Assembly (NCBI GenBank): GCA_031259965.1
Contig: JAIRKT010000022.1
Coordinates: forward strand, 17,997 to 81,996
From: Christensenellaceae bacterium
GTDB lineage: Bacteria; Bacillota; Clostridia; Christensenellales; DTU072
DNA: 64,000 nucleotides
Reading direction: 5' to 3'
The notes below the pieces were generated by a model. It was not told the DNA's origin, ran no database searches, and saw nothing but the letters and a program-made list of their open reading frames with translations. Both the position numbers and the translations under genes were made by a program. Positions 5,495-27,739 of this stretch are shown piece after piece. How positions within the stretch are numbered: the stretch's first letter is position 1; each line of letters starts with the position of its first letter.

Positions 5495-5545
5495 ATTAAA
5501 ATTTTATCAAATTTAGATTTAGAGTAAATATTTAAGAAAATTTAA

Positions 5546-5574
5546 TTTATATAAATAGATTTATTTGATATAAT
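5546..5574 (+). promoter_or_regulatory. Extended -10 promoter for the alpha-glucosidase gene
   Basis: TGATATAAT (5566-5574, TGnTATAAT type) with a weak -35 TTTATA 17 nt upstream. Confidence 0.4.
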
Positions 5575-5631
5575 ATACATAATAACATTTAAGGCAATTG
5601 AATAATTGTTCTAGATGAGGAGTACTATTTA

Positions 5632-7302
5632 ATGAAGTCAAGATGGTATAAAGATGCGGTTTTTTACCAAATATATCCACGCAGTTTTAAAGATTCAAAT
5701 GGTGATGGAATTGGTGATATTCGCGGTATAATCGAAAAAATCGATTATCTAAAAGGTTTAGGAATAAACGCTGTTTGGTTATCACCAGTGTATATGTCAC
5801 CAAATGATGATAATGGTTATGATATTAGTAATTACAGAGATATTAATCCTGAATTCGGAACTTTGGAAGATTGGAAAGAAATGATTGATAAGATGCATCA
5901 AAATGGAATACGTCTTGTTATGGATCTTGTGGTTAATCATTCCTCAGACGAACATCAATGGTTTTTGGAAAGCAAAAAAAGCAAGGACAATCCATATCGT
6001 AATTATTATATCTGGAGACCAGGTAAAAACAATGATGGAAAAAAGCCTCCAAATAATTGGACATCTAGATTTGGTGGATCGGCTTGGAAATACGATCAAA
6101 ACACAAACGAATGGTATTTACATTTGTTTAGTGAAAAACAACCAGATTTGAATTGGGAAAATCCAGCTGTCAGGCAAGAAGTTGTTGACATATGTAATTA
6201 TTGGCTTGATTTGGGTGTAGACGGATTTAGGTGTGATGTAATCACATATATTAGCAAAGCAAACGGACTCCCAGATGGAAAATACAATCCAATTTTAAGA
6301 GGTGATGAACATTTTGTAGCAAAACCTAAAATACATGAGTATTTAAATCAATTAAACAGAGAGTCCTGGAGTAAATATGATACCATGATAGTAGGGGAGG
6401 CTGCCGGATTAACACGAAAGGATGCTGAATTATTAGTAAGCGAATCTCGTAATGAAATGGATTCAGTTATTGAATTTGAATTATCTTTAGTTGATATGAA
6501 ATTCAACGCAATACCAGTAAAACTGAATCTTAAAAAGTTTAAAAAAATTCAAAGTGCATGGCAAAATATCCCAGATGATTGTTGGAATACTTTGTTTTAT
6601 GAAAATCATGATCAACCCAGATCTATATCAAGATATGGTAATGAATTTGGCCCATTTAGAAAGGAATTAGCTAAAATGCTCGCCATTTCATACATTACAC
6701 TCAAAGGTACTCCCTATATATATCAAGGTCAGGAGATCGGCATGTCAAATATATCATTGAATCCAGATGAGTATGCTGACATAATGACTAAAAGAATATT
6801 CCAAATAACAAAGAAATTCCCACCTCTTTACTGGCTTGCAAAAAAAGTAATGAAAAAAGTAGCACGTGATAACGCGAGAACTCCGATGCAATGGAGTGAT
6901 GGCGCAAACGCAGATTTTTCTACCTCAACACCATGGTTTAAACTAAACCCAAATTATGGTGATATAAACGTTCAAGCTCAATTAAACAATCCCAACTCCA
7001 TTCTTAATTTCTACAAAAAAATCATTGATTTTAGAATAAATAATGAGATTTTAATTAAGGGTTCATACAAAGAATATTTTCCAAATCATAAGCGTGTTTA
7101 TGCGTTTGAAAGAGCGTATGAAGGCAAAAGATTCATAATAATTTGTAATTTTAAGTCCGATGTTGTTAATCTTAATTGTATAGACATGAACGCAATGGGT
7201 GCTAAACTTGTATTAAGTAATTATGCTAATACGGCGGAAACTTTTAAAAATGGCATGACACTGCGAGCGTATGAAGCTTTCATTTATTATATAGAAAGCT
7301 AA
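5632..7302 (+). CDS. GH13 alpha-glucosidase, oligo-1,6-glucosidase-like (556 aa)
   Basis: Classic GH13 subfamily-31-type motifs: WYKDAVFYQIYPRSF, DLVVNHSSDEHQWF, GVDGFRCDVI (nucleophile Asp), VGEA (acid/base Glu), YENHDQPR. GAGGAG RBS 9 nt upstream. Substrate specificity cannot be told from the sequence. Confidence 0.9.
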   Translation: MKSRWYKDAVFYQIYPRSFKDSNGDGIGDIRGIIEKIDYLKGLGINAVWLSPVYMSPNDDNGYDISNYRDINPEFGTLEDWKEMIDKMHQNGIRLVMDLVVNHSSDEHQWFLESKKSKDNPYRNYYIWRPGKNNDGKKPPNNWTSRFGGSAWKYDQNTNEWYLHLFSEKQPDLNWENPAVRQEVVDICNYWLDLGVDGFRCDVITYISKANGLPDGKYNPILRGDEHFVAKPKIHEYLNQLNRESWSKYDTMIVGEAAGLTRKDAELLVSESRNEMDSVIEFELSLVDMKFNAIPVKLNLKKFKKIQSAWQNIPDDCWNTLFYENHDQPRSISRYGNEFGPFRKELAKMLAISYITLKGTPYIYQGQEIGMSNISLNPDEYADIMTKRIFQITKKFPPLYWLAKKVMKKVARDNARTPMQWSDGANADFSTSTPWFKLNPNYGDINVQAQLNNPNSILNFYKKIIDFRINNEILIKGSYKEYFPNHKRVYAFERAYEGKRFIIICNFKSDVVNLNCIDMNAMGAKLVLSNYANTAETFKNGMTLRAYEAFIYYIES

Positions 7303-7317
7303 ATTTTTATTAAAACA

Positions 7318-7356
7318 CACCCCCTTGTCAACAACAAAGGGGGTAGTGATTTTTAC
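7318..7356 (+). terminator. Rho-independent terminator after the glucosidase gene
   Basis: CCCCCTT (7320-7326) pairs with AAGGGGG (7337-7343) around a 10-nt loop. A T-rich tract (GATTTTTA) follows shortly after. Confidence 0.75.
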
Positions 7357-7701
7357 CTAGCGCACAACACTTGTGCCGATTATAAAAACATGACAAAGAG
7401 CAGTCTGTTTTTAAAAATAAAGAGAATAAAAATTTAAAAGAGAGGATGCAGAATTTCTTTATTTGATGAAGACCAGCGTTTTTACTCTTTAATTAAATAC
7501 TAAGATTTCACTTCTAAAACATTTTTTGTATAATATAAGGAGTTGAAATTTGTTTAGCTTAAAAAATTAAACTAACAATTAGTATAATGCTCGCCCAATT
7601 AATTTTGAATATCTACAAAAATAGTGTGATGTTTTAAACACAAACTATTAAAATAGTTGATAAATAGTTTTAATTTCAGTATTCATTGCATATAATTAAT
7701 T

Positions 7702-8646
7702 GTGGACTATTCTGCGTACAAATTAAAAAATTTTCGTCAAAAACAGTTTAAAAATAATTATGAGAATGATGATATTAAAAATATGCGGGCACATCTACCT
7801 TGTATAAACTCAAATGCAGAAAGTTGTGAAATTGTTGACATGCAATATTCTATCAACAATAGTTTAGAAGATTATCCTGAAATTAAAACTTTTTTTAGAG
7901 GGGTTAGAGTAAAAGATAAGAAAAAAAAATTTAGGTTATATAATTTTGTAATAATCTTGATTTTAATAATGACTTCCTTAATTAGTTTAGACATGATAAT
8001 GGGTTTTAATTTTTTGGCTGATTTAGTTGACTCTATGAATGGCGGCAGTACACTCAATTACTATTTTGTTATTGGTGGCAAATTTAACGATAAACTCCGC
8101 GCGCAGGAATATTCACAAGTTGTTTATTCAAAAGGTGGTGCGGGTGTTGTAAAATCTATTGAAAACAAATATGCGGTGATAGTTGCTTCATACTTTAATA
8201 TAGATTCAGCCGCCTCTGTGATGCAAAAGAATTATTTACCATTCATGATATCTGTAAAATTAAATCAAAATAAAATAAATTTGGATAAAAAAAGCTACAA
8301 AAAGCTAGTGGTAGATCAAATTAATTTTATATTCGACAAATTAAAGAGTGTAGACGATTTATTGTATTTAACTCAAAACGGGAAAGTAGATAATAAGACA
8401 TTTACAGAAATCCTATTAAACTTAAAAGATGAAATAAACGCCTCCGCAAGGATTACAAACTCTAAATACAATTCTCGTGATTTAGATAAACTCCTCTTAA
8501 CTATCTACTCATTGCAAGATGACTTAGAATCCCTAATTTTGACTAATGAAAAAAAATGGCCAGAGTCAATAAGAAGAATGATAACCAAAACATTAGTAGA
8601 TATAACTGAGATCTTTCCCGAATCAATTCTAATCAAAATTGGATAA
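7702..8646 (+). CDS. Single-pass membrane protein with SPOR-like domain (314 aa as tracked)
   Basis: One TM (FVIILILIMTSLISLDMIMGF) is followed by YYFVIGGKFNDKLRAQEYSQVVYSKGGAGVVKSIENKYAVIVASYFNIDSAASVMQKN, which fits the SPOR (PF05036) beta-alpha-beta-beta pattern. The start is uncertain: GTG at 7702 has no RBS and sits 6 nt after a TATAAT (7691-7696), so the mRNA may be leaderless or the start may be internal. Confidence 0.55.
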   Translation: MDYSAYKLKNFRQKQFKNNYENDDIKNMRAHLPCINSNAESCEIVDMQYSINNSLEDYPEIKTFFRGVRVKDKKKKFRLYNFVIILILIMTSLISLDMIMGFNFLADLVDSMNGGSTLNYYFVIGGKFNDKLRAQEYSQVVYSKGGAGVVKSIENKYAVIVASYFNIDSAASVMQKNYLPFMISVKLNQNKINLDKKSYKKLVVDQINFIFDKLKSVDDLLYLTQNGKVDNKTFTEILLNLKDEINASARITNSKYNSRDLDKLLLTIYSLQDDLESLILTNEKKWPESIRRMITKTLVDITEIFPESILIKIG

Positions 8647-8827
8647 GTACAGTCAAAATTGATTATGAGTATTAGTTAATCAAACAATATTACAATTTCT
8701 GCTGACAGAAGATGATTTGGTTATATATCAAGAATGGATATAAAAAAGTAACAGCTTAAAAGGAGTACAAAAACAAAGAAAAAACAAATACTTTAAAATA
8801 ATAATTAAGTAAACACGCCTCTTAATC

Positions 8828-8856
8828 TTGACTAAACACGCCAAATATTGTATTAT
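8828..8856 (+). promoter_or_regulatory. Promoter of the 3,538-aa surface-protein operon
   Basis: TTGACT (8828-8833), 17-nt spacer, TATTAT (8851-8856). Confidence 0.55.
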
Positions 8857-8930
8857 ATATAGTGATATTTTATTGTGTGTTGTCACGCGCGCGCACGCGC
8901 GTATATTAGAGTAATAAAATATTATATATA
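8853..8930 (+). promoter_or_regulatory. Nested inverted repeat with GC-only core hairpin (5'-UTR structure or cruciform)
   Basis: The inner hairpin is ACGCGCG (8885-8891), loop CGCA, CGCGCGT (8896-8902). The outer AT arms are TATATATAgtgATATTTTATT and AATAAAATATTATATATA (18 bp with a 3-nt bulge). Positions 8884-8906 form an unbroken purine/pyrimidine alternation. Confidence 0.5.
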
Positions 8931-8947
8931 GATCTGGGTTATAAGTG

Positions 8948-8961
8948 TAGATAATTATCTA
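8948..8961. promoter_or_regulatory. Perfect 14-bp palindrome TAGATAATTATCTA between promoter and start codon
   Basis: Read directly from the sequence. It is followed by the palindrome CATGCATG (8963-8970). Possible dimeric-regulator operator. Confidence 0.3.
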
Positions 8962-9040
8962 ACATGCATGTTTGGTATAAGCTCTATACATGATTCTATT
9001 TAGTATTTTTAACCAATCGCGGCGGAGGTATTCTCCTAGG

Positions 9041-12000
9041 ATGAATATACGGTATAAATTTTCATTTTGCATTATTTTTTCTGTTTTAATCATATTATGT
9101 TTTGCACTTGTAGGTGCTAGCAATTTATTTAAAGCTAGCGCTTTTACAATGCCAGACGGACTATATAACGCGGCACCTTCTGGGAATACTCTAATTGGCT
9201 CTGCCCCCTGGAATAATGATGCTAGTTATTTAGGCAACAATAACGAGGGATTGCAATTTGGCACAAACGCTATGCAGACACGTGCAATTTCTGGTCAACT
9301 ATCAACCGCACAAACTGATCTTAATGAAGGTGTAAATAGAGATTTTAGATCTACGGGTTTAACAAGATACATACTTACGACAGCATCAATTGAAGGAACT
9401 GCTGGTCAAAGTGGCGCGTCGGTTGTTTCAAACATTAAACTTAACACTGCAGACGATAACTATGCGGCAGTGTCTTATGCGTTAGCTATTCCAAATTATA
9501 ACGTTAAAGTTAGGTTTTCCGCCACAATTGAAAATACTGGCGGAGATCCCACAGAGTATCAGTTATTCCTTAATTTTTATCCGTATGGTACTAATTCAAA
9601 TGATGGCAAAAGTAGCAATCAAGATAAGATTACAGTTATTGGCAATTCTAGCGGGCAGTTTGCTGGCACGAATGAATTTAAAGTACCAACCTTTATTGGT
9701 GATCTAAGTAATGCGATATTAGAAATAATATTTTATGCTCCTGCAGGTGCCCTGTTTAAAATGACATCTCCTAGTGTAAAAGTTTCACTAGATATTGATG
9801 AGGATCTCACTAAACTTAACATAGTAAGCAGTTCCACAATAGAAGTTTCTGGTTTAAACCGAAGCACAAGAACAATTATAGCAGGCGGCTCATCTCTAGA
9901 TTTAAATACTTTTTATTTAAAAGCAGGTGATCATATAGCATTTACAACTAATGTTTATACTATGGGTAGTTCTACGAATAGATATAAATTTCCTGAAAAG
10001 TATCCATACATATTTGGTTTGCAAAATTTAGAGGGTACTCAGCGGTTTATAGGAAAATACGATAACGGACAATACATCTACACAAATCCAGCGTGCATAG
10101 TTTATGAGAGTTCTGGAATTGATTTAACAAAGGTTACTGAAGAACAACTAGTCGATGCTAGCAATCCTAGTCAAGTATCATATAGAACTGAGTTCATAGT
10201 TGGGCAAAATGTACTAAACGCGCTTTATTTTAACATAAGGCCCAAGGTAATAACAGGTATTGATTTAGATGGTAATTATTTAGTAAAGTATCAAAGGGCG
10301 GCTGGGCCCTACAAGATATATCTTGATACTGGTGCACCTGGAATGCCGACAATAAATCCATCCTCTTCATTCGGGAGTGCGATTAATAATGGTGTGTGGT
10401 TTACTGATAGGTCTGATCCAACACTTGATATGGTTAATACAAATCTCCAAGTTGTAACAGACGAATACACATATGCAATACTATTGCCATCGTATATAAC
10501 TTCACTAGATATGACGCAGCTTGATTTTACTAGCTTAAACGCAGAGTTTGACGATGGTACTAATGTAAAAAATCAGTCAGTCACTGTGTCTGGTGGTACT
10601 GCTATGGCTGAAATACAGCGCATATTCAAATATGATAGTGCCAGGCAGAATACCCCATCTACGAGCAAGCCCTTGGTTTTTTCGCATTCTGGTGAATATT
10701 CATTGTTCTTAATAACTGTTGATGTGACAGGAAATTATAGTAATCCACGTACCTATACTAACGTTCGAGTAGACGCACAGTATCATGATGTAGCATTGGA
10801 ATATAGTGTGGGCGGAGGCACAATCACAAAGGGCAAGGGCACAGTAAGTGTTTTGTACATAGTTGGTGCTTCGCAGCATGACGCAAACGGAAAACTAATA
10901 AACAATGCAGCATACTATATTAACAATGCCAAATCATATACTCAAGACACTGGAGCTAAACGTGGAGAATTCATAACTTTTATGTTTAGAATGGACGCTA
11001 ATGCATACAATTTTTACAGGCTAGAAAGTTATATGAATAAGGCATCGGATAATACACAAATTACGAGACCTGTTTTGACTTTAGAGGGAGGTGAGTATTA
11101 TTTATTCATAACATACATTATGGATGATGCAAATGTAGAGGAAGGGTGTATAGTTGAGTGTAGTTTGCTTGAAAAAGCGGTTATAAGTGTACAAGAAAGT
11201 TCATTTGTTTATACTGGTTCACATATTAACATGAATAATTATTCATCAATTTTGTCATTAACATCTACTGGCGCGAATGGCGCAAAGATTAATGATGTTG
11301 CGGCGTCATTTAAATATTATGATTTGCTTAGTGCATCAGCTGTGGTTTCAGATTCTAATAAAGTCACAATAACTTTATCTGGCACAGAGTATGTTGTGGA
11401 GTCACAAAATCCATTAATTGTAGTTGCAAGCACATACAAACTGGATGGTAGAGAATATTATTCAGCTAAAGTAAGCCAGATATCGCCCAATCATTACGAT
11501 TTAAGAATTGTTTGTTTGGAACCTGATGCCGTCAAAGCATCTGTATACAACGCAGGTGAATATTGGTATCGTGCTGAAATTACAGAGCAGATCGGTATTC
11601 CTAGATATTTTGGTATTGCGCAAAATTTTCTGACAATAAACAAAGCATCACCTGACGTAAATAGTTTAAGTGCTGCAAATTTAACATATGGTGATTCACT
11701 TGAAAAAATATTATATACTAGCAGAACAATCCCAGGTGTTTTAATTGATAGCAATTCCTCGGTAACATTTCTAGATTCTCAAACTATAATTAAAAGGTTG
11801 TATTTTACCGCATCAGAAGTCTATGGTGAATATATAATCAGATCTATAGAAGCTGGAACTGATGAATATACCAAGCCTCAAGCTGGTAGAATCAACATAA
11901 CTATAGAATTTGTACCATTTAATCCGCTTTTTAAATTAGACGGATCACCTTTGAATGAAAATGAAGTTGTAGAATATTGCAGTTTGTACTCATTCTATTA

Positions 12001-15000
12001 CAATTATTATAATGGTACTACATTAAACGATTCAAATGGTAAGCATGCTCTAAATTACGCAGCTGCTACTTACACAATAAGCCTAGTTATTGACAAAGCA
12101 ATGGCTTCCATTGAAGTAAACGAACAAAGTTTAGATTTAACATATACAGGAAGCGCTCTTGAGCCTACATTTACAACTAATCCACAAGGCCTTGGGTATA
12201 TTCATTTATACGAATTAAAAAATTCAAATGGAATATATAACGCTAAAACCACTGCTCTGCCTGTTGTAGCTGGCGAATACAGAGTGACATACTATATAGA
12301 CGATTCAAATTATCAGTCTGAAGAGATGATTAGCACATTTATTGTTAAGAAAATGAATATTAAAATAGCTGTTGATAATGACTCATTAACACCATGTAAT
12401 GATAATTTGATAACTTCGAGCATAACAGATCAAAATGTTACATATTCATATTACATGCAAAATAGTTATGGAAGGCTAACGGTCCCTAATCCTACCATTT
12501 TAGATGATATTGAAGTAGGAGGTATAACATATAGATATTCATACAAGATGATGCGCGATTGGACGGGAGAATCCGTGATGTCAGATTATAGTGAACCAGC
12601 TACTCTCCAGATTACAAATGCATCGATGATATCAGGTGTATACTTGATTAAAATAATTGTTGACGCCTTAAATTACACTGGTGAATGTTCAATAATGTTG
12701 TATATGGCCCCCGCTAATGCTAATGATACTCTTGAAACTACGAATTTTTTGTATGCTTTTCCAGATGTCTTGTCTACATATGCTGTGTACAATATTGGAT
12801 CTTCAATACCAGTTAGTATAAGTTACGACACAACAATAGGACATGTCGAATATGGACAAACTATAGCCGAATTAATAGTTGATAACCAAATTTTTTCGAA
12901 TCTCGCAAATGCTGGCGTTCAATATTTATATTTGACTGGTAGAGATTCGGTTGCAGGTAGATTTAGATTATCAAATGAAGAAGAGATTGCAATTCTAAAT
13001 AATATTACATTAGATACAAGAACTGATAGTATTACTAATGAGCAAACCAAAATTTTGCCAGTGAGATATGACTTATATACTGGCAATACTATTGCGTATA
13101 ATGCATTTATTATTTGGGAAGCTGGTGAATATAATGATAACGGGGTTTTTATTGTAAATAACGATTTTAAATCAATAACCAAATCAATTTCTTTATACGT
13201 AGCAAGGGCCACTCCTACCTTTGAAAACATAGAGCCTTTTGATAGTGTTGTATACGAAACAAAGTTGTCAGATGTTGTCTTCATTGGAAAACCTCATGTT
13301 GCAGGAAATAATGGTACAATAACAGGAATAAAGGGATATGACCTTGAAAATTATGAATATAATATAACACCTGAAAATGGAGAGTATATACCAGAGACAG
13401 GTTCTAACACTGTAACATTTGTTTTTACACCTCGTGAAGATATTTATCTTAAAAGATACAGAGAAGTTGCCTTTTCAATTGAAATTATTGTTACACAAAA
13501 AGAGGGATCAATTGAAATAGGTGAAAATGCGAGTGCACAATTTGGCGATATTTATACCAATCCACCGGCCACAACTCTTCCACAAGGTTTAGCACTCAAG
13601 TACGAATACTTTGACGCATCTAACAAGCCTGTGGTAGTAGGTCCTGCTACGCCAGTTGGAACATACACACTAAAAGTTAGTATAAATGAAAAAAATTATT
13701 ATGGAGAGGCAACTTCTACTTATGTTATAGAAAAAGCCACTCTTGTTTGGAATGTTCAACCTGTTACGGTTCAAGGTGAAATTAGATACGGTGTTAAAAT
13801 TAAAGATATTGCACTAACTACTGGTGGCTCTCTTAAAACAAGAGAAGGCACATACATTCTTCCCGGTTCATTTGTTTGCTCTTCGATAGATGACTATGAA
13901 ATAGATGATTATATTCCAACTGGAAAACATAATGTGTATGTTAAATATACTCCATCTATGATAATAGAAGATGGCTTCGATAACAATTACATTGTGCCAG
14001 ATCTCACTATTTCGATAGAAATTTTAAAAGCAAATCCTATTATTATTGTAAGTGATATCTCAAAAACTTATGATGGAGAGAGTAAAGGTGCGACAATATC
14101 TTTTGATGGGCTAATACCTAGTTATATAGTTTCGTATACTAGTCTATACACAAACAAATCTTCAGGAGTATCTTTGGGAGTAAATATGCTTCCTACATTA
14201 GCTGGTGAATATACTCTACTGATAACAATTGATGATAGTCATTATCAGGGTAGCACTAGCAGTAATTTTACTATTTTAAAAGCCATCACCACTGTTGCGC
14301 CTATAAACTATGTTTTTGCGTATGATGGTGCTTCACACACATTTACCTATTCTAAATCTGTAGAGGGTTTAAATTATTCACTGACCTACATTAATAGTAC
14401 GGGGATAGAATACACACAACCACCATCTGTCGCTGGTAAATATACGGTTAATATTAAACTAAATGAAGGCTATTTAGAATCTAATTATCAAATAAGTGGG
14501 ACCGGTAATTATTCATTTTATATTGTACCAGTTGTAAATGGAATAGTTGATGTTTCTAAGCTACAGCAATACTATGGCGCGACGCAACCTGTCAATGTTA
14601 CATTTACTTATCCACCTACTAGCATTGAGACAAAATATGTAAGCGTGACAAATGATATTGTTTTGTACGATCATGATTTTAATTCCGCGCCTGCAGACAT
14701 ATATGATCTTCATTTTAATATTGTAGTCAATGGATTAACATGCACTGTGATCGCTGGCAAAACTTCGTCTATTGATGAAAACTTTTATTCGAGGGTGATA
14801 ATCCCAGATGAGGGAACTTTCAATTTATATGATGCGGGCAATACTTCATATGTTACTGATCTCTATGTGGTAGTCAGAAAATCTCCTGTTAACATCATAT
14901 TAGAAAGCCGCTACGAAACAACTTACACGGCGAGCAATTTTGATCCAAAAACCATGGGAATTTATGTTGAGCTAGATTCATATCAACCAAAGTTGCTCTT

Positions 15001-18000
15001 TAGTTATATTGACATGGACGCGAAAAATGACCAAACAGAGAAAGATAATGTAGCTGTAGCTGGTAAATATAAGGTAATTGTTAAAATAGATGATATGAAC
15101 TATGTAGGAGAGGCCAACACTGAATTAACAATTAAAAAAGCGACTCCAAACGCAAATCAAGCACCAACCCTAGCAGAAAAATATAGTTATAGTGATGATC
15201 CTTCAAAGGTTGTTTTCAAAAACGATGGTTGGGTATTATTTAATGGTAATAACATAGAGGGTCTTTGGTATGTAGATACAACTGATTTTGATAAGCTGCC
15301 TGTAGGACAATATGATAATATCAGCTTTCGATTTGAACCCTTCAATACTAGTTTGAATAATGCATATATTTATGGTAGTGTTAACATAAGCAAAAAAAAT
15401 ATAAAAGAATACTTGGCATATGAGAGTGCTGATTTAGTACAGGAATATAATAGAGATCAACATAGTGTGCGTGCGTATATTAGAGATAGATCAGCTGAGT
15501 TTATGGCGGCTGATAGTAGTTTGAATCTTATAGTTACCTATAACAATAACACTTACGCACCTGAACAATGTGATGATTATAATATAATGATCTACGTTGT
15601 AAGTATCTATTATGAAGGTTCAATAGGTGGAGATAATACTATAATAATGAAGGTAAAGCCAGCAACTCCTAGTATTATTCTACCTACATTCCCATCATTA
15701 ACTGCAGGTCAACCATTAAGTAATGTATCACCTACTGGCGGGCTAGCCTATATTGGTGATACAATTCATACGATAGATGGTGTCTTTTATTTTAATGATC
15801 CAACCCAAACATCTACTCTTTTGAATGAAAGACAATTTCTAATGACATTTGCACCAACAGATTCTGTCAATTATAATTCACCCACATTCCCTGTATATGT
15901 GTTGATAGTGCCAGCTGAGCCTGTAGAATATTACTATGGCACAGCGCAAGTTGAACCATTCGTATATGGACAGACACTTAGCAGCATTCAAATTACGCCA
16001 AAACGGGAACATGATAATTATATACCTGGTACTTTTGAATGGGTAGATAGCACGCTTATGCCTAAAAATTTGGATGTTGTTTCATATCGGTTTATTCCAT
16101 CTAAAATACAAATAGATAGTGATTCGCAAAAACCATTCTACGATATTTATCCTATTGTAACTGGCACTGTAACAGTTAATGTAAACAATGCTGATTTTGC
16201 GATTGAATATGGTGCATATGGAATAGTTTATGTAGGCGAGACTCTAAGTCAGGTTAGACTATATGTAACTCCTTTAAACTCAACCACAAATTTACCAATA
16301 AATGACTATAATATTCTGCTGCAACAGGGCAATACGCAAATTCCTTTAAATACTGTCATAACAACTGCCTATTTGAGCACAGCACAACCTGTATTAACTC
16401 TTGATGTTAGCATACTACTAACAAAGAGTTATTACAACATGAAATCATTTAATATTACAGATATAAGGGTTCGCAATCTTTTGAATCCAATCAACTTTAA
16501 TACTTCTGTATTTACAAAAAAATATGACGGCATTGCGCTTACTGGATTATCTTTATTAACTACAGTGGGATTGAATGTTACAAGCACTTCATTTGAGCAT
16601 GATTTATCTAAATATACAATAAATTCTATATTTAGAGATGGAATATTAGTAGAATCGGTATTAGACGCTGGTAGTTATGTAATTAACATTACATATGATG
16701 ATGGTATACATTATGGAACTACACAATTCCAATTCGAAGTAACAAAGCGCGATATTTCAAACGCAATTAGTTTACTAGACGGCACTTCTACAATACAATT
16801 TGTTTATGGATCGACTAAAGATACATTTGAACTCAAGTTTACAGAGGTAATTGACAACCAAGTATTTAATTATGACGCGCTAGAAATACTTCCATATATT
16901 TCGTTTAAATATGTAGACACAAATAATTCCATAACATATGGCGCAACTGCGCCTAGAAACGCAGGCGAGTATACTGTAGACGTTTCTATTTCAGTAGGCT
17001 GTCCTATGTATTCTGGTTCGAGAAAATTTGTGTATATAATAGTAAGAAAAGAAATTCAGATATACTTCCCAAGCTCTGGTTATACTTTCCAATATGGCGA
17101 CGCGATTTCAATAATACCTGTTATTGATGTAGTCGATGCTGAAGCCTATTATTTGACTTTCAATAGTAATATAGGTGTTCCGGAGAATGCTGGATCTTAT
17201 TTAGTAAGGGCACATTTGGATGGCAAAAATTTCTATGGGACATCAGAGCCCATTGGTTTGCTAATAGAAAAAGCAAAATTGGTTGTAACTCAACTTCCTA
17301 CAGTATCTGGCCTCATTTATGGACAGAATTTGGGAAGTGCAAAAATATCTGGTGGTTCTTGCGCTAATGCCAAGAGTGGTAAAGTTGCGGAAGGCGCTTT
17401 CTATTTTATGAATCCTGATAGCATATCATTTACAGCAGGTGCAAATAATAGGGTTTACCTTAAATATATATATAACGACAACTACGAAATTTTAGAAAAT
17501 ATTCAAGTTGATGTAACAGTTGGAAAAGCTACTTCTAGTATTTCTGTAATAAGTCAAACAGCTGTTTACACAGGCGGTGAGGTTAAACCCTTAGTAAATT
17601 CTGATACTGCATACCCTGTAACATACGAAATGCTGTTTACTCGTGATTATGCTGTCGTGTCGCCTATTAATGTGGGTGAATACACAGTTAGAATTACAAT
17701 AAATGATGATAATTATCAAGGCGAGATTAGTAATTTGATTTTTACAATTACACCTATCGAGGCAAAGGACCATATACCCCCAGTAACCTCATCAATTAGT
17801 TATGGAGCATCCTTAAGTGTTAGTTCGTTTTTTGGTGGATCAGTAATTTATTTTGATGGGATTTCAACGCCTGGAACTTTTGTATATGCTTCTCCAGCGC
17901 TTGTGCCAGGTGTGAATGAAAAAGTCATAGGACTTGGAGGGCCTGGTGATGTTGGGGTTTATAAAGTGGGTTACAAATTTATACCATCTGATAGTTTGAA

Positions 18001-19657
18001 TTATCAAGAATGGAGTGGGGAGATTCACATAACTGTTACTAAGGCTATAGCTTCTATAATAGTTACTAATTATAACTTTGTTTATGGCGAATTTATAACA
18101 GCTCCTACATTTAATACACTACCAGGTGGCATAATAGTTCAAAACGATGAGTTTGTTTCTTCTGGTTTTGAGGGCACGACGCGGACCGCTGGTGTATACA
18201 ATTTTAGAGCCTATATTCAGAACGAATATTATACAGGTGAAACTGTATATAACATTATAGTAGCGAAAAAGGCTGTGTCATTCAAGTTTGTTAACGATGC
18301 TAACAATGAAGTTGAAAAATATTTAACTGAATATAATGTTCCTCTGAGTGTGGCTATAGCGATAGACGCAGATTCTGTTTATGCAACAGACGGTGGCACA
18401 GCTAGTGTTATAAAAATGTTGAGTAACAATATACTATTTACCTACTCTGAGAAGAATGTAGCTAATTCCACAATTTATTTTACACCACCTACAAAGGTTG
18501 GTGTCTACACTGTGTCAGTTACTATTTCTAACAACAACTATTATATTAAGACTGAGGATTCACAAATTGATTATGAAATTGAGAGGGCTACTGTTAAAAA
18601 GATAGAATTTGACGCAAACAGCATAAGCAATCAGATCTATGGATCAGTTACAATGCCTTTGGTAACAATAGAACCCACAGGCGTACCATACGAGTTAAGA
18701 TTCGACGATCAGCCATACCTGCCAACTTCAGTAGGTGATCATAACGTTGTTATAATAATATCCGATCCAAATTATGTTCCGATCTCAAAACAAAACAGAT
18801 TCAGGATTCTACCAAAAAGCATAACTATAGAAGACATTGTGGTGTTGAATAAGGCCTTTGATGGCACTGCGAATTTGACTATAACAGCATCTCTTAAAGG
18901 TGTTATAAGAAACGATGAGGTATATCTTAATATCGAAGCTAGAACTAAAGATTCTGCGACTGAGGTTGGGTATCATGAAGTTCAAATCACTAAGTGGGAA
19001 TTAAAAGGGCAGCATGCTGGCAACTATACAATTGCTCAAACCCCTGTATACGAATCAAGAATTAGTATTACTAACCAAAAGGTTGAAGATTCGAGTGGGA
19101 GCGGTTATATAACTTCAAATGAAGGGTTTAGTCCAAACATAACTATAGATATACGAGATGTTACGTCGAGTGCAAATCCCTCTAATGTATTTACTGTAAT
19201 ACTAGGTCAAAAAGCGATTGTCAAGGCTGTTTCACTAAAAGAAAACGGCAACAATTTAGTACTAGGTGAGAAAGTTAAATTTTACATACTACTGCCTGAA
19301 TCTTATCGCAATTCAAAAAGCCTCGAGTTTAGACAAGCGGGAAATCTTGAAGGTGAAGCGGTGGCGTTTACAAGGGAAGGTGATTATATTACTTTTTATG
19401 CCGATAGATCTGGTGAGATTGTAATTCTTGCACACGATTTTCCATATTGGTTAATCATTGTAGGTGGCGCATTATTATTAATAGTTAGTTTGTTTGTCTT
19501 TATAAAAGCCATGCCAGCAAGACGGCAGTTATACACAACAAGAAGGTTTAGGCGCGAATATCAAAAGCGCGCATATACAACAAACAGAATTGCAGCTATA
19601 GCTGAAAAAAAGAAAATCCGAGAAGAGGAGTCAAAATATAATGCCAGATTCGATTAA
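9041..19657 (+). CDS. Giant type-I membrane-anchored surface protein with MBG/YDG-like Ig-type repeat modules (3,538 aa)
   Basis: The tracked ORF starts at 8990, but the ATG at 9041 gives a canonical signal peptide (MNIRYKFSFCIIFSVLIILCFALVGASNLFKASA|F) and has GGAGG 11 nt upstream. From about nt 11640 there are on the order of 25 modules of ~95 aa. They are delimited by I-x-K-A-x-P/S boundaries and carry YTG/YDG...AGEY...NY motifs. The C-terminal TM (YWLIIVGGALLLIVSLFVFI, ~19445-19505) is followed by a basic tail. No LPXTG. Confidence 0.9.
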   Translation: MNIRYKFSFCIIFSVLIILCFALVGASNLFKASAFTMPDGLYNAAPSGNTLIGSAPWNNDASYLGNNNEGLQFGTNAMQTRAISGQLSTAQTDLNEGVNRDFRSTGLTRYILTTASIEGTAGQSGASVVSNIKLNTADDNYAAVSYALAIPNYNVKVRFSATIENTGGDPTEYQLFLNFYPYGTNSNDGKSSNQDKITVIGNSSGQFAGTNEFKVPTFIGDLSNAILEIIFYAPAGALFKMTSPSVKVSLDIDEDLTKLNIVSSSTIEVSGLNRSTRTIIAGGSSLDLNTFYLKAGDHIAFTTNVYTMGSSTNRYKFPEKYPYIFGLQNLEGTQRFIGKYDNGQYIYTNPACIVYESSGIDLTKVTEEQLVDASNPSQVSYRTEFIVGQNVLNALYFNIRPKVITGIDLDGNYLVKYQRAAGPYKIYLDTGAPGMPTINPSSSFGSAINNGVWFTDRSDPTLDMVNTNLQVVTDEYTYAILLPSYITSLDMTQLDFTSLNAEFDDGTNVKNQSVTVSGGTAMAEIQRIFKYDSARQNTPSTSKPLVFSHSGEYSLFLITVDVTGNYSNPRTYTNVRVDAQYHDVALEYSVGGGTITKGKGTVSVLYIVGASQHDANGKLINNAAYYINNAKSYTQDTGAKRGEFITFMFRMDANAYNFYRLESYMNKASDNTQITRPVLTLEGGEYYLFITYIMDDANVEEGCIVECSLLEKAVISVQESSFVYTGSHINMNNYSSILSLTSTGANGAKINDVAASFKYYDLLSASAVVSDSNKVTITLSGTEYVVESQNPLIVVASTYKLDGREYYSAKVSQISPNHYDLRIVCLEPDAVKASVYNAGEYWYRAEITEQIGIPRYFGIAQNFLTINKASPDVNSLSAANLTYGDSLEKILYTSRTIPGVLIDSNSSVTFLDSQTIIKRLYFTASEVYGEYIIRSIEAGTDEYTKPQAGRINITIEFVPFNPLFKLDGSPLNENEVVEYCSLYSFYYNYYNGTTLNDSNGKHALNYAAATYTISLVIDKAMASIEVNEQSLDLTYTGSALEPTFTTNPQGLGYIHLYELKNSNGIYNAKTTALPVVAGEYRVTYYIDDSNYQSEEMISTFIVKKMNIKIAVDNDSLTPCNDNLITSSITDQNVTYSYYMQNSYGRLTVPNPTILDDIEVGGITYRYSYKMMRDWTGESVMSDYSEPATLQITNASMISGVYLIKIIVDALNYTGECSIMLYMAPANANDTLETTNFLYAFPDVLSTYAVYNIGSSIPVSISYDTTIGHVEYGQTIAELIVDNQIFSNLANAGVQYLYLTGRDSVAGRFRLSNEEEIAILNNITLDTRTDSITNEQTKILPVRYDLYTGNTIAYNAFIIWEAGEYNDNGVFIVNNDFKSITKSISLYVARATPTFENIEPFDSVVYETKLSDVVFIGKPHVAGNNGTITGIKGYDLENYEYNITPENGEYIPETGSNTVTFVFTPREDIYLKRYREVAFSIEIIVTQKEGSIEIGENASAQFGDIYTNPPATTLPQGLALKYEYFDASNKPVVVGPATPVGTYTLKVSINEKNYYGEATSTYVIEKATLVWNVQPVTVQGEIRYGVKIKDIALTTGGSLKTREGTYILPGSFVCSSIDDYEIDDYIPTGKHNVYVKYTPSMIIEDGFDNNYIVPDLTISIEILKANPIIIVSDISKTYDGESKGATISFDGLIPSYIVSYTSLYTNKSSGVSLGVNMLPTLAGEYTLLITIDDSHYQGSTSSNFTILKAITTVAPINYVFAYDGASHTFTYSKSVEGLNYSLTYINSTGIEYTQPPSVAGKYTVNIKLNEGYLESNYQISGTGNYSFYIVPVVNGIVDVSKLQQYYGATQPVNVTFTYPPTSIETKYVSVTNDIVLYDHDFNSAPADIYDLHFNIVVNGLTCTVIAGKTSSIDENFYSRVIIPDEGTFNLYDAGNTSYVTDLYVVVRKSPVNIILESRYETTYTASNFDPKTMGIYVELDSYQPKLLFSYIDMDAKNDQTEKDNVAVAGKYKVIVKIDDMNYVGEANTELTIKKATPNANQAPTLAEKYSYSDDPSKVVFKNDGWVLFNGNNIEGLWYVDTTDFDKLPVGQYDNISFRFEPFNTSLNNAYIYGSVNISKKNIKEYLAYESADLVQEYNRDQHSVRAYIRDRSAEFMAADSSLNLIVTYNNNTYAPEQCDDYNIMIYVVSIYYEGSIGGDNTIIMKVKPATPSIILPTFPSLTAGQPLSNVSPTGGLAYIGDTIHTIDGVFYFNDPTQTSTLLNERQFLMTFAPTDSVNYNSPTFPVYVLIVPAEPVEYYYGTAQVEPFVYGQTLSSIQITPKREHDNYIPGTFEWVDSTLMPKNLDVVSYRFIPSKIQIDSDSQKPFYDIYPIVTGTVTVNVNNADFAIEYGAYGIVYVGETLSQVRLYVTPLNSTTNLPINDYNILLQQGNTQIPLNTVITTAYLSTAQPVLTLDVSILLTKSYYNMKSFNITDIRVRNLLNPINFNTSVFTKKYDGIALTGLSLLTTVGLNVTSTSFEHDLSKYTINSIFRDGILVESVLDAGSYVINITYDDGIHYGTTQFQFEVTKRDISNAISLLDGTSTIQFVYGSTKDTFELKFTEVIDNQVFNYDALEILPYISFKYVDTNNSITYGATAPRNAGEYTVDVSISVGCPMYSGSRKFVYIIVRKEIQIYFPSSGYTFQYGDAISIIPVIDVVDAEAYYLTFNSNIGVPENAGSYLVRAHLDGKNFYGTSEPIGLLIEKAKLVVTQLPTVSGLIYGQNLGSAKISGGSCANAKSGKVAEGAFYFMNPDSISFTAGANNRVYLKYIYNDNYEILENIQVDVTVGKATSSISVISQTAVYTGGEVKPLVNSDTAYPVTYEMLFTRDYAVVSPINVGEYTVRITINDDNYQGEISNLIFTITPIEAKDHIPPVTSSISYGASLSVSSFFGGSVIYFDGISTPGTFVYASPALVPGVNEKVIGLGGPGDVGVYKVGYKFIPSDSLNYQEWSGEIHITVTKAIASIIVTNYNFVYGEFITAPTFNTLPGGIIVQNDEFVSSGFEGTTRTAGVYNFRAYIQNEYYTGETVYNIIVAKKAVSFKFVNDANNEVEKYLTEYNVPLSVAIAIDADSVYATDGGTASVIKMLSNNILFTYSEKNVANSTIYFTPPTKVGVYTVSVTISNNNYYIKTEDSQIDYEIERATVKKIEFDANSISNQIYGSVTMPLVTIEPTGVPYELRFDDQPYLPTSVGDHNVVIIISDPNYVPISKQNRFRILPKSITIEDIVVLNKAFDGTANLTITASLKGVIRNDEVYLNIEARTKDSATEVGYHEVQITKWELKGQHAGNYTIAQTPVYESRISITNQKVEDSSGSGYITSNEGFSPNITIDIRDVTSSANPSNVFTVILGQKAIVKAVSLKENGNNLVLGEKVKFYILLPESYRNSKSLEFRQAGNLEGEAVAFTREGDYITFYADRSGEIVILAHDFPYWLIIVGGALLLIVSLFVFIKAMPARRQLYTTRRFRREYQKRAYTTNRIAAIAEKKKIREEESKYNARFD

Positions 19658-21371
19658 CAAATCGACGATCATAATTTTTACAGCTATTTTACTATTATTA
19701 ATGCTTTTAATAGGTGTGACTCCACAAAAGACAATTGCAACATTCGCCGCTGCGGAGGAAACTGAATTAATTATTTCACAAGTTGGAATTGATGATCATC
19801 ATTCAGCGGCCGATGGTGTTATTTTTCAGTTTACATGCCCACCTGGGACAATAAAACTTAGTTATAAATTTGTTCATGATTATGATGGCGTTGAGGAAAG
19901 TGGTGAAATTTTTCTAGTTGACAACATATCATACAAATATGGTAATCAGAAATTTTATGAAAATGGTATCTATGAAGCAATTGCATTGCAAAGTGATGAA
20001 AGCACATTAGAGGCTGATTTTGAGATTAAAACTATTGACTACATGCCGCCTAAGCACGACACATCAACTGGCACTAGCAAAGATAGGTGGGAGTTTGAAG
20101 GCCCTTATTTATCATGGTATACGGCTTATATTGAGGACCGATTTGCCGCACAAAAACAGGACGTTTCTAGTGGACTTAAAAACATTATTGTTTTTAGAGA
20201 TAGACAGAATGGACTCTCATTAGAGGAAATAATGCCTGAGGATAGTGATGACATAAACGCATATAGGAATATAGAGCCTCAGACAATTGAAAGTTTAGAA
20301 GTTGATATAATAAAAAAGCTCGATAATATATCTGGTAGCAACCTAGTGTATGATACATACATAGACTTTGATATAGATCAAGAAGGTGGCACATACTATT
20401 TATATGCGCGAGATAATGTTGGGAATGTTCTTTTGCAGAGAATGTTTAACATGTATGATAATACGAGGTACGAATTTACAACAGCTGATGGTACGTTAAT
20501 TGATTATACGGAGACCATAAATTTAGCAGCTACTCGTTTAGCCGAGCTAAATTCTGAATATGCAAACCATATTTTGGATGCGCTGAGTACTGCACTGAGT
20601 AGAATAAGATTTAGCTTTTACCAAGGCGATGAAGACGAAATTATGGCGGCGGGCCGCGCTTTTGATATAGCGCAAGCCGCATACACTAACGCTAAGCGAG
20701 TATATGAAATAGAACTAATAGGTGCTGGTGTTTTTCCTAATTATGAAAAAATAAGCGCACTTAATTTTGATGATAGTACTGTTAGCATTTTGAAAGGTGA
20801 AACCGCTAAAATAACATTGACATTTTCTGAATACAGACAAGATTATTATGATTTTGCCTTTATTCAGAGCGCAATGGGAATAAATAAGGCTAACCGGTTG
20901 TTTAAAATTGATAGCATCCTATCAGTTGATGGTAAACCAGTTGAACTCATAGCGCCTATTAAATTAAGATTCGCTATACCAACGACATTTAATGATATAG
21001 GTGTAGCAAGTGTAGTAGACAACAAAATTACTGTGAATGAAGTAGAACGCGGCGCTGAATGGCTAATGCTAGTATTATCTTATGAAAATCAATATTTTTA
21101 TGTTATAATAAATGACGAGAATGTAGAACCTCGAAACGAAACATTGATTTATATACTGATAGGTGTTGCGTGCCTAGTGTTTTTGATAGGTGCAACGATT
21201 GTTTTAGTGTTACTCAAAAAGCAACGCAATCTAAAAAAACAGTTAAATAACACTATACCTAATGCTGATGAAAATGCTAATCAACCGACCGTTAAAAAGC
21301 AGGCAACTAATACAGTGCTAGCTCCTACTAAAAAGGTTCATCATAATAAAAGCAAAAAGAGGAAAAGATAA
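19641..21371 (+). CDS. Type-I membrane protein, function unknown (576 aa)
   Basis: Overlaps the giant gene by 17 nt, with a GAGGAG RBS upstream. Signal peptide (IIIFTAILLLLMLLIGV...ATFAAA), a beta-rich ectodomain, a C-terminal TM (LIYILIGVACLVFLIGATIVLVLL) and a K/R-rich tail ending KSKKRKR. Confidence 0.8.
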   Translation: MPDSINKSTIIIFTAILLLLMLLIGVTPQKTIATFAAAEETELIISQVGIDDHHSAADGVIFQFTCPPGTIKLSYKFVHDYDGVEESGEIFLVDNISYKYGNQKFYENGIYEAIALQSDESTLEADFEIKTIDYMPPKHDTSTGTSKDRWEFEGPYLSWYTAYIEDRFAAQKQDVSSGLKNIIVFRDRQNGLSLEEIMPEDSDDINAYRNIEPQTIESLEVDIIKKLDNISGSNLVYDTYIDFDIDQEGGTYYLYARDNVGNVLLQRMFNMYDNTRYEFTTADGTLIDYTETINLAATRLAELNSEYANHILDALSTALSRIRFSFYQGDEDEIMAAGRAFDIAQAAYTNAKRVYEIELIGAGVFPNYEKISALNFDDSTVSILKGETAKITLTFSEYRQDYYDFAFIQSAMGINKANRLFKIDSILSVDGKPVELIAPIKLRFAIPTTFNDIGVASVVDNKITVNEVERGAEWLMLVLSYENQYFYVIINDENVEPRNETLIYILIGVACLVFLIGATIVLVLLKKQRNLKKQLNNTIPNADENANQPTVKKQATNTVLAPTKKVHHNKSKKRKR

Positions 21372-21377
21372 GGTATA

Positions 21378-22226
21378 ATGCGTTATCTAAAAAAGACATT
21401 TGAATATTTGTTCCTACTTGAGAAAAGCAAAAGATTCTTTATTATCTTTTTGTTTCTATTGCCAGTAGGATGCGTTTTCAGCTGGCTTATGCCATCTGGT
21501 AATTATATAAGATTATTAATGAATTATGATTCGGAACCAAAGAAATTCTTTGCTATATGGACATTTGATTCTAACATGCTCGAATATGTGCTGGCGTTAG
21601 TTTTTACTTTTGTGATTCTTATATTCTGTGTTTCGATTATAATAAGCGTTATAACGAGATCCTTTAGAATTGGTGTTTTTAAATTACACAAACCTTTGAC
21701 TGATTTTAATGATAATTTTCAACCTGTTTTTTCTGCCTCAATAACTTATTTATTTACGTTAATTGCATATAAAGTAGTTATTACTACCTTGCTGGGTTTA
21801 TGGAAAACCATAGAAAACCATTATTTATCACTCGCGATCTCGATTATAACAATTTGTATTATAACTATATTAGCAGCAATTCTAACAACACACATATCGC
21901 TAATTGTGCCTATAATGTCAGCTACTGGTTTGAAGCTAAAAGACGCATTTTTAAAAAGCATACAAAAAGTAGGTGAATCACTAGTTCCGATTTCAACAGG
22001 GCTTTGGATACCTGTTATGATTAAGGCAATACTAGGATCAATAATAGCGTTAACTGAAATAAAATATCTTCTACTTGGAATGGACATACTTCTAAATACA
22101 TTTCTATTTAGTTATTTAGTGGTTTATATCTTAATAGTTTATTATGAAATAGAAAGGATAAAGCGGGAAGATTACACACCGCATTATTTTGAGAAAAGAG
22201 CTAAAAAACAACTTTCCAAGGATTAG
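21378..22226 (+). CDS. Polytopic membrane protein, function unknown (282 aa)
   Basis: Starts 6 nt after the preceding stop. About 6 TM helices. No motif I can name. Confidence 0.75.
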   Translation: MRYLKKTFEYLFLLEKSKRFFIIFLFLLPVGCVFSWLMPSGNYIRLLMNYDSEPKKFFAIWTFDSNMLEYVLALVFTFVILIFCVSIIISVITRSFRIGVFKLHKPLTDFNDNFQPVFSASITYLFTLIAYKVVITTLLGLWKTIENHYLSLAISIITICIITILAAILTTHISLIVPIMSATGLKLKDAFLKSIQKVGESLVPISTGLWIPVMIKAILGSIIALTEIKYLLLGMDILLNTFLFSYLVVYILIVYYEIERIKREDYTPHYFEKRAKKQLSKD

Positions 22227-22235
22227 GGAGGCATT

Positions 22236-23255
22236 ATGATATTAAAAGATTCGTTTTCGATTTTGGGTATCAATTTAAATTTGATATTCAAAACCCTTAT
22301 ATATACCTTTGTTTTAATGATAATATTTTTTGCTCTATTGACTAGTATAATAAAGCCTATAGCAGATTTAATATTTATTGATTTTGAATTTTCGGAACAA
22401 CTACGAAAAACATTTAGTAATTGGATGAGTGGAGATATAGATTCTTTTAGAGGACTTTTTAGAGAAATTGGAAACTTCATATCTCAAGAGTCACATAAAA
22501 CAAATACAACGATTATTAATTCAATAATAGTCTATGTTATATTCATGTTTTTCATTCAAATGACTAACATTCCGATCACTAAAGTCTTATACAACAAAAT
22601 GAGCCAAGGCTATGACGAACGCTTTCATATGTCGCTAATATCCACGCTTATATTAGCACTAAAATATTCTTTTGTAAATGCCATAACAGGTGCTTTACTT
22701 GATTTGTTAATATTTGTATTTGGAATTGTTCTTTTGAGCCTCTTGTTTCCACTAATATCTATCTACTCAATAACAATTGCTGTATTTGTTATGCTGATAT
22801 TATTGTCTATTAGAATTTCATTTACAATAATGTTACCTCCGATTATGGTTGCTGAAGAAAAAAAGGTTTTTAAAGCACTTGTTTTATCAATAAAAAGAAC
22901 TCCCAAAATATTAAACAAAATATTCATACCAGTATTCATAGTAATAATAACTACTTTTGCAATTTGCATGTGCACGGTAGCGGTTACATTTGGCATAATA
23001 CCTATAATCATTATACCGACATATATGGTATTAATGTCAGCAATTAGTTTGATTGTCTATTTTGTAGATAATAAAAGGAAATATTATACAACGAACGTTT
23101 TGGATTTCAATGGCAGGGTTGACTATCTGCCTCAAAGTTCAGAAAATGATGCAATGCAAGCTGCAAGACAATCGTCTGAGTCTGAAGAGGAAGAAAATGA
23201 GTTAGTTGATAGTGAATGCGATACAAAAACAGGGGAGAAGGATTCTAGCGATTGA
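22236..23255 (+). CDS. Polytopic membrane protein with acidic C-terminal tail (339 aa)
   Basis: GGGAGG RBS 4 nt upstream. About 6-7 TM helices. The tail is rich in S/E/D (SSESEEEENELVDSECD). The N-terminal style (MILKDSFSIL...) loosely recalls DUF975/GDPD-membrane-domain proteins; this is unverified. Confidence 0.75.
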   Translation: MILKDSFSILGINLNLIFKTLIYTFVLMIIFFALLTSIIKPIADLIFIDFEFSEQLRKTFSNWMSGDIDSFRGLFREIGNFISQESHKTNTTIINSIIVYVIFMFFIQMTNIPITKVLYNKMSQGYDERFHMSLISTLILALKYSFVNAITGALLDLLIFVFGIVLLSLLFPLISIYSITIAVFVMLILLSIRISFTIMLPPIMVAEEKKVFKALVLSIKRTPKILNKIFIPVFIVIITTFAICMCTVAVTFGIIPIIIIPTYMVLMSAISLIVYFVDNKRKYYTTNVLDFNGRVDYLPQSSENDAMQAARQSSESEEEENELVDSECDTKTGEKDSSD

Positions 23256-24713: not shown

Positions 24714-24726
24714 GCTAATACCTCTT

Positions 24727-27737: not shown

Positions 27738-27739
27738 AA

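Follow-up and report, generated by a model that had tools for sequence, protein, structure and literature searches.

A candidate type-I membrane-anchored giant fibril protein with an orphan head and a conserved gene cassette in Christensenellaceae-like bacteria

How might a bacterium hold a 390-kDa protein at its surface without a sortase signal, and what would such a protein display? Gut Firmicutes often have giant adhesin-like proteins, which are almost never understood beyond "repeats plus unknown head". Here, we address this question for a 64,000-nucleotide stretch of contig JAIRKT010000022.1 (the window), in which one gene encodes a 3,538-residue surface protein, hereafter the giant. We lean, by a modest degree, towards the view that its sequence describes a type-I membrane-anchored, fixed-length adhesin-type fibril of a Christensenellaceae-like bacterium. 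Four features are new: an orphan head family, a family-specific juxtamembrane anchor domain common to the giant and the product of the next gene (D1), a four-gene cassette, and a stalk of fixed length whose modules are not homogenised. The giant and its terminal features are as follows.

9041..19657, + strand: giant surface-protein gene, 3,538 aa, stop codon included (open reading frame list and translation)
9041..9142, + strand: N-terminal signal sequence, residues 1-34, with its hydropathy peak at residues 5-30 and predicted cleavage after ASA
19445..19510, + strand: C-terminal transmembrane helix, residues 3469-3490, with hydropathy up to 2.87 over 19 residues
19511..19654, + strand: predicted cytoplasmic tail of 48 aa, from MPARR... 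to RFD, with 15 K/R versus 6 D/E

The giant's open reading frame (ORF) is genuine. The open frame spans 8990..19657 (+; 3,555 codons), and the start at 9041 is preceded by GGAGG. The N-terminus of the closest orthologue (P0001) likewise reads MNIRYK, and the gene call for the giant's product in the representative library (P0002) is also 3,538 aa long. Since, by our arithmetic, ~7% of random codons would be stops at 34% GC, we dismiss a chance origin of the frame. Promoter and terminator scans of this AT-rich DNA were uninformative.

When 1.84 billion cluster representatives were scanned exhaustively with HMMER, the head turned up in six proteins only: the window's product, four full-length giants, and one contig-truncated fragment of 962 aa. 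The five complete members of this family are 3,285-3,618 aa long and have the same C-terminus, in which "DFPYW" is followed by a transmembrane helix and a basic segment. A word-indexed search of 5.8 billion proteins returned a single partial head orthologue, even with a profile query. This is a protein from a "Christensenellaceae bacterium" metagenome-assembled genome (MAG), with 53% identity. When one genome per GTDB species was scanned, the head was found at three loci, all of them in MAGs titled Christensenellaceae. The head family is genuine but very narrow.

We find that the five full-length members are collinear from end to end, with few gaps. Identity to the window's giant is 23-42% in the head (residues 36-750), 27-49% in the stalk (751-3340), and 39-59% in the C-terminal region (3341-3538), with a peak of 49-69% at residues 3401-3500. 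Conservation that rises from head to base would suit a base under constraint and a ligand-binding tip that is free to vary.

A Kyte-Doolittle scan shows exactly two hydrophobic segments in the giant, at residues ~5-30 and 3469-3490. The first is followed by ASA and then F, and small residues also occupy positions -1 and -3 in the orthologues (TMA, AGA, VMA, and AKA). Because this AXA-like site recurs while the neighbouring sequence differs, the signal is likely to be cleaved. An uncleaved signal anchor would instead tether the giant at both ends, as a loop on the membrane surface. The h-region, with ~19-25 hydrophobic residues, is long enough to cross a bilayer, and the window's two other giants apparently have an N-terminal hydrophobic segment only. 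We nevertheless consider this arrangement distinctly unlikely, given that a long h-region is usual in Gram-positive signal peptides and that the AXA-like site follows the h-region both here and in four orthologues, despite their differing surroundings.

At the other end, all orthologues have a hydrophobic stretch at the position of the C-terminal helix. The first 22 residues of the tail contain 8 K/R versus 1 D/E, and the P..R and R.VR positions of the tail (P.RR…R.VR) are nearly invariant among orthologues. The giant thus combines a signal sequence, a single C-terminal transmembrane helix, and a positive-inside tail, as a single-pass protein of type I (N-out, C-in) does, with cleavage and insertion both predicted. 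An original prediction, made by a model from the letters of this DNA, had proposed a four-part architecture of cleavable signal sequence, unnamed head, MBG/YDG stalk, and transmembrane helix with basic tail. That architecture is correct, with the cleavage of the signal as its predicted element.

The conserved helix, the DFPYW belt, and the positive-inside tail suggest that the giant is retained by its C-terminal helix. It has no LPXTG motif anywhere, the sole match to [LI]PxT[GANS] being at residue 1450, far from the C-terminus, and 48 residues follow its helix; both features separate it from sortase-anchored LPXTG proteins. A Pfam scan of the giant shows no wall-binding or S-layer domains (SLH, CWB2, LysM).

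Anchoring by a C-terminal helix had been called unusual for monoderm giants, which overstates the case. It is less familiar but documented in staphylococcal Embp/Ebh, proteins of ~1 MDa that carry an export signal at the N-terminus, then a long stretch of repeats, and at the C-terminus a putative transmembrane region in place of an LPXTG anchor (PMC7587433). The likeness to the giant, which also has a C-terminal transmembrane region as its anchor, is an analogy of topology only. The repeats of Embp/Ebh are alpha-helical FIVAR/GA bundles, accompanied by DUF1542 modules and a YSIRK signal, whereas the giant is an all-beta MBG/YDG protein with no sequence relationship to them: Pfam shows only MBG_3 and YDG in it, and its N-terminus (MNIRYKFSF...) lacks the YSIRK motif. 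Furthermore, Embp/Ebh have not been described with a partner protein that has the same anchor domain, unlike the giant and D1.

That anchor domain lies directly outside the helix and is the most conserved part of the giant.

19055..19444, + strand: membrane-proximal domain, residues 3339-3468, ending REGDYITFYADRSGE...DFPYW (alignment A4)

The last ~130 extracellular residues (…KENG…VKFYVKIP…REGDYITFYADRSGE…DFPYW) are nearly invariant in the orthologues. This domain has no match in Pfam, NCBIfam, or PDB, and a metagenome scan with its profile identified seven loci in all. By profile comparison, the membrane-proximal domains of the giant and D1 are homologous (hhalign prob 95.8, E 7.8e-9), over 119 columns that end where the transmembrane helix starts. 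D1 is one of three genes directly downstream of the giant, and a fourth gene, U1, recurs upstream.

19641..21371, + strand: D1, a 576-aa type-I membrane protein with a signal sequence, ~470-aa ectodomain, transmembrane helix, and Lys-rich tail; its gene overlaps that of the giant by 17 nt
21378..22226, + strand: D2, a 282-aa polytopic membrane protein with ~6 hydrophobic segments, 6 nt after D1
22236..23255, + strand: D3, a 339-aa polytopic membrane protein, 9 nt after D2
7702..8646, + strand: U1, a 314-aa single-transmembrane protein, recurrent upstream neighbour of the giant

The giant heads a conserved cassette, giant-D1-D2-D3. The original prediction had viewed the giant's gene alone and missed both this cassette and the second product with the giant's anchor domain. 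D1, whose hydrophobic segments are at residues 9-27 and 505-523, has orthologues that follow the giant at six other loci (L006, L007, L010, L011, L014, and L015). Four of these loci (L006, L007, L011, and L014) also have orthologues of D2, with 34-42% identity, and of D3. The full gene order is kept at L006, L007-L009, L011, and L014, with pairwise identities of 23-42%. These loci are of varied origin. L006 comes from the MAG Pcl387_bin85, where the giant and D1 also overlap by 17 nt; L011 is a Logan contig and L014 a 312-kb metagenome contig, both with the full cassette. L007-L009 are three independent assemblies that carry the orthologue P0005 between wholly different flanks, with GroES/GroEL upstream and prophage genes downstream. 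In L007 (19964..23313) and L008 (18775..22124), these prophage genes (large terminase, P22-type portal) follow the cassette at a distance of a few kb. A phage origin of the giant was considered and rejected: IMG/VR viral contigs hold no copies of the anchor domain, and the adjacent prophage genes look coincidental.

The most distant relatives, L017 and L018 (30% and 47% GC), retain the giant's anchor domain. In L017 the giant (6521..12360) is followed by a 595-aa D1 homologue (hhalign prob 97.3, E 2e-11), and in L018 the giant (6339..12242) is followed by a 597-aa ORF in the D1 position. At both loci, housekeeping genes take the place of D2 and D3: the next ones encode a CDP-alcohol phosphatidyltransferase and a valyl-tRNA synthetase, and then, in L017, a HAD hydrolase. 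Because a D1 homologue persists in a distant relative without D2 and D3, we take the core unit to be the giant plus D1.

None of D1, D2, and D3 has a Pfam, NCBIfam, or PDB match. The D2 profile matches D3 in hmmsearch (E 4e-7 over ~195 residues), while hhalign gives only prob 22% and E 1e-3. Tentatively, D2 and D3 may be distant paralogues that arose by ancient duplication and form a heterodimeric polytopic pair. Protein P0007 is a shorter, identical gene call of D2. A match of the D1 profile to the ORF at 61170..62486 was dismissed, as it covers the transmembrane helix only. Homologues of U1 precede the giant in L002 and L007, and in L006 a further gene lies in between (BLASTP E 1e-25, 1e-15, and 2e-9, respectively). 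U1 has no family match, and a SPOR-like domain was dropped for want of Pfam support. It may be part of the giant's system, although this is uncertain.

Could the C-terminus be a sorting signal rather than a permanent anchor? DFPYW, the helix, and the Arg-rich segment would then be cut by a dedicated membrane enzyme, possibly D2/D3, and the fibril moved to the wall or to lipid. The tripartite arrangement of motif, helix, and basic cluster is invariant in all family members, and two polytopic membrane proteins are encoded directly downstream. However, 35-48 residues follow the helix, and in known sorting signals the helix comes only a few residues before the end. The families of D2 and D3 contain no invariant Cys or His and match no known family, and we do not count the giant among the substrates of exosortase, archaeosortase, or rhombosortase systems. 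D1 has the membrane-proximal domain without DFPYW, the distant relatives have DFPYW-type giants without D2 and D3, and the giant itself lacks LPXTG. We therefore regard sorting of this kind as very unlikely, and favour retention by the helix.

Between the anchor domain and the head lies the stalk.

11285..19054, + strand: stalk, residues 749-3338, with 14 MBG_3-like, 8 second-type, and 1 YDG module; five gaps, each 63-166 aa long, have no assigned module
18812..19042, + strand: YDG-type module, the last in the stalk, residues 3258-3334 (PF18657, E 1.1e-07, 32.4 bits versus a cut-off of 25)

Pfam MBG_3 matches the giant with 153 bits against a cut-off of 25, in six significant stretches. With Pfam gathering thresholds passed, the giant belongs to the MBG_3/YDG-domain surface proteins. 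An NCBIfam scan of the whole giant gave no match, and PDB sequences searched with the stalk yielded nothing meaningful. Iterated hidden Markov models (HMMs) built from the protein itself recover 14 type-A (MBG_3-like) modules, from residue 749 to 3262, and 8 type-B modules of ~90 aa, with a consensus like P...x.YGxxLS...GG...G.F.F...P.D..NY. No relationship between the two types was detected at the profile level. The 23 recognisable modules and five module-sized gaps make a total of ~28 modules likely, six of which reach Pfam significance. An earlier estimate "on the order of 25" is consistent with this count.

The MBG and YDG families were defined from the stalk repeats of bacterial surface proteins (PMC8201768). 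The giant's stalk belongs to the same domain superfamily (MBG_3 PF18887, MBG_2 PF18676, YDG PF18657), which includes CdrA of Pseudomonas aeruginosa with its MBG_2 repeats, while the head, membrane-proximal domain, and transmembrane anchor of the giant have no Pfam counterpart. CdrA, which a diderm exports by two-partner secretion, follows a route of export and anchoring unlike that of the giant.

A stalk of this kind raises the question of whether its length is adjustable. Periscope proteins are built from near-identical tandem repeats, and strains differ in how many of these they have (Whelan et al. 2021, PNAS; PMC8201768). As in those proteins, an N-terminal region of the giant would stand on a rod of tandem domains, and the YDG and MBG_2 Pfam families are partly common to both. 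Unlike them, the giant has strongly divergent modules: pairwise identity averages 21% within each type (14 type-A and 8 type-B modules) and nowhere exceeds 34%, and Tandem Repeats Finder (TRF) detects no DNA tandem repeats in 9041..19657. Furthermore, the five full-length proteins are collinear and of near-constant length, a comparison made between relatives, not strains. The giant is not a Periscope protein, as it shows neither defining feature. Since the full-length orthologues are collinear, their lengths nearly constant, and the modules not homogenised, we take the stalk length to be fixed.

A stalk under length constraint, as the collinearity, the unhomogenised modules, and the lack of DNA repeats suggest, would also suit an envelope-structuring or spacer protein. 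Such a role has been proposed for Ebh (integrity, cell spacing, surface canopy), and the giant's head would then be a cap or self-association module. Two further giant surface proteins in the window are consistent with a dense surface layer, and a role of S. aureus Ebh in osmoresistance has been noted (PMC7587433). Against this, the head is the fastest-evolving part of the giant, which is more typical of a tip that faces a ligand or partner. A predicted jelly-roll at the tip, of the type found in carbohydrate-binding modules (CBMs), fits binding, and SLH, CWB2, and LysM domains are absent from the Pfam scan. We thus judge a spacer role unlikely, and continue with the adhesin-type fibril and its head.

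9143..9340, + strand: N-terminal ~65-aa mature segment (GLYNAAP...LQFG.N..QTR...RDFR), conserved in the closer orthologues (alignment A2), modelled with low confidence
9341..9805, + strand: head domain 1, predicted jelly-roll/beta-sandwich, residues ~101-255 (model residues ~66-217, with AlphaFold strands at 68-217, pLDDT ~70-80)
9806..11284, + strand: head domains 2-4, predicted beta-rich, residues ~256-430, 431-580, and 581-748, with approximate boundaries (AlphaFold and invariant columns of A2)

The original prediction gave the head ~800 residues, without a nameable motif, and treated it as one unit. We find it to be shorter, at ~715 aa (residues 36-748), as the first MBG-like module begins at 749. 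The lack of a nameable motif stands: the head has no match in Pfam or NCBIfam, whether searched whole, in three pieces, or with all six orthologous heads, and its profile finds nothing meaningful among PDB sequences. For head domains 2-4, the only Pfam matches are Ig-like ones below threshold (Big_13 and InlK_D3, E~0.05). Domain HMM scans and the PDB search thus place it in no well-known adhesin or enzyme family. We rejected kinship with the stalk modules (hhalign E 0.2-0.3), and the D.xGN motif common to the head and the D1 ectodomain is not significant (E 0.2). No other giant or neighbouring gene in the 64-kb window was found to have the head.

An AlphaFold model of the head, built from the six-sequence alignment A2, reached a predicted local distance difference test (pLDDT) score of 70.3 and a predicted template modelling (pTM) score of 0.53; an earlier two-sequence model was discarded (pLDDT 39.9). 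The model is a string of all-beta domains, several in number, rather than a single unit. Model residues 9-65 have pLDDT below 50, and the third of head domains 2-4 carries the motif GEYSLxLITVDxxGNxS. The VKVRFSAT...SPSVKV stretch (residues 155-248), which had been suggested to be a beta-sandwich of lectin or CBM type, falls inside the strands of head domain 1 (model residues 118-217).

A Foldseek search of the PDB with this model returned local matches of 134-186 columns with prob ~1 and E 1e-3 to 2e-2. They include CBM16 (3oea, 2zey; TM-score to target 0.45-0.49) and CBM61 (2xon; 0.39), over ~135-150 head residues at 8-12% identity, and ~160 columns of an accessory domain of the K2-2 Klebsiella-phage tailspike (8iqe). 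Foldseek output carries no query ranges, and we infer that the CBM and tailspike matches lie on head domain 1. The weak local fold likeness to CBM16/CBM61 jelly-rolls has no counterpart in sequence, as the head matches no CBM Pfam profile. The fold matches as a whole are to Ig/FN3-like domain chains, tail fibres, and CBM-type jelly-rolls; global alignments to Ig-like domain chains have a root-mean-square deviation (rmsd) of 20-48 A and are meaningless. The predicted strands would fit the earlier beta-sandwich suggestion; the modest E-values and TM-scores make CBM identity plausible but weakly supported. On the model, the head is most likely a binding-type string of beta domains, orphan by sequence.

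A stalk-displayed enzyme (glycoside hydrolase, lyase, or peptidase) would be another use for such a head, and an alpha-amylase gene lies nearby. The fold matches also include the chain of a phage tailspike depolymerase and an exo-chitosanase. We consider an enzyme highly improbable, however. No catalytic family was found in the six heads by Pfam, NCBIfam, or PDB sequence searches, and no catalytic fold appears as a confident local match in the fold search. The tailspike match of ~160 columns has a small TM-score relative to the target and is consistent with an accessory beta domain, while, with an rmsd above 30 A, the matches to exo-chitosanase mean nothing globally. The prediction is one of small all-beta domains, and no amylase gene is among the neighbours of P0005.

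We propose the following mechanism for the membrane-anchored fibril. The giant would be exported by Sec and lose its N-terminal signal. Its one C-terminal helix would hold it in the cytoplasmic membrane, the DFPYW aromatic belt lying outside and the Arg/Lys-rich tail inside. At the base, the membrane-proximal domain would sit beside co-translated D1, with D2 and D3 added in this sub-clade. Some 28 divergent beta modules of ~85 aa would form a long stalk, ~100 nm by our estimate of 3-4 nm per module. We infer that this stalk is rod-like and that the head binds a ligand. The ~715-aa tip, held off the cell, would comprise the short N-terminal segment, the jelly-roll, and three further beta domains; it stands about 2,720 residues from the transmembrane helix, farther than the ~2,500 residues from the membrane first predicted. 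The jelly-roll could bind carbohydrate or another surface ligand, and the head may fasten the cell to particles, to host surfaces, or to other cells.

Several points weigh against this proposal. The head model derives from six sequences and has a pTM of only 0.53, its CBM-like matches are weak (E about 1e-2, TM-score below 0.5), and the jelly-roll is a generic fold. Carbohydrate-binding residues are not identifiable in the head, where few positions are invariant (A2). Cleavage of the signal is predicted from its sequence, and the giant would be doubly tethered were it to stay uncleaved. The most distant relatives, L017 and L018, have neither D2 nor D3. Gene linkage and the common domain are what point to a physical complex of the giant, D1, D2, and D3.

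The wider window contains other large surface-protein genes. An ORF at 29149..43356 (-) encodes 4,735 aa with 12 YDG domains and a match to F5/8 type C (discoidin), and in the 4,126-aa product of an ORF at 44714..57094 (+) the domains are Listeria-Bacteroides (Flg_new) and InlB B-repeat-like. Neither protein has a C-terminal transmembrane helix, and the only hydrophobic segment in each is N-terminal. With the gene of the 3,538-aa giant included, genes for giant surface proteins occupy about 37 kb of the 64-kb window. Three small overlapping genes, at 28480..29148, 27740..28483, and 27096..27743 (all -), come immediately downstream of the gene for the 4,735-aa protein. Each product has a hydrophobic N-terminal stretch, after which comes TSFAWF, GATFSWF, or TMAVWE, and Pfam matches the third only (BspA-type LRR_5). 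This pattern resembles SipW-cognate (TasA/camelysin-type) signal peptides, and the three may be fibre- or pilin-like subunits that go with the 4,735-aa giant.

Upstream of the giant, QueT and alpha-amylase genes (4958..7302, +) are arranged as in L002, and downstream a Dak2/Dak1/Fe-alcohol dehydrogenase operon (24054..26852, -) is arranged as in L006. These shared flanks speak for a Christensenellaceae-like origin of the window. An ORF at 32..2776 (+) encodes a 914-aa protein without a Pfam match, the N-terminal ~120 residues of which are E/K-rich; the syntenic position in L002 holds a 1,131-aa gene that runs over the end of the locus.

What does this fibril mean for the organisms that carry it? 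As a tentative possibility, the giant and D1, with D2 and D3 in the Christensenellaceae sub-clade, might constitute an undescribed, dedicated surface-fibril system in anaerobic monoderms of the gut. Two type-I proteins would dock on a polytopic pair, with a ~100-nm stalk and a fast-evolving head, and the system could underlie cell-cell aggregation. Cultured Christensenella form flocs that house methanogens, and the adhesin involved has not been named (PMC7002349). The giant's head family is found only in uncultured MAGs, and a link to this aggregation is therefore speculative.

The giant's family is small and clean, which allows three matters to be tested: the purpose of a fixed-length, non-periscope stalk, the sortase-free holding of a 390-kDa protein in the membrane, and the ligand of an orphan all-beta head in a Christensenellaceae-type organism. 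Christensenellaceae are of interest for host health and for syntrophy with methanogens, and their aggregation with methanogens is well documented and molecularly unexplained (PMC7002349). Should the anchor complex prove real, surface fibrils would have a further, membrane-anchoring route beside the sortase, S-layer-homology, and lipoprotein routes.

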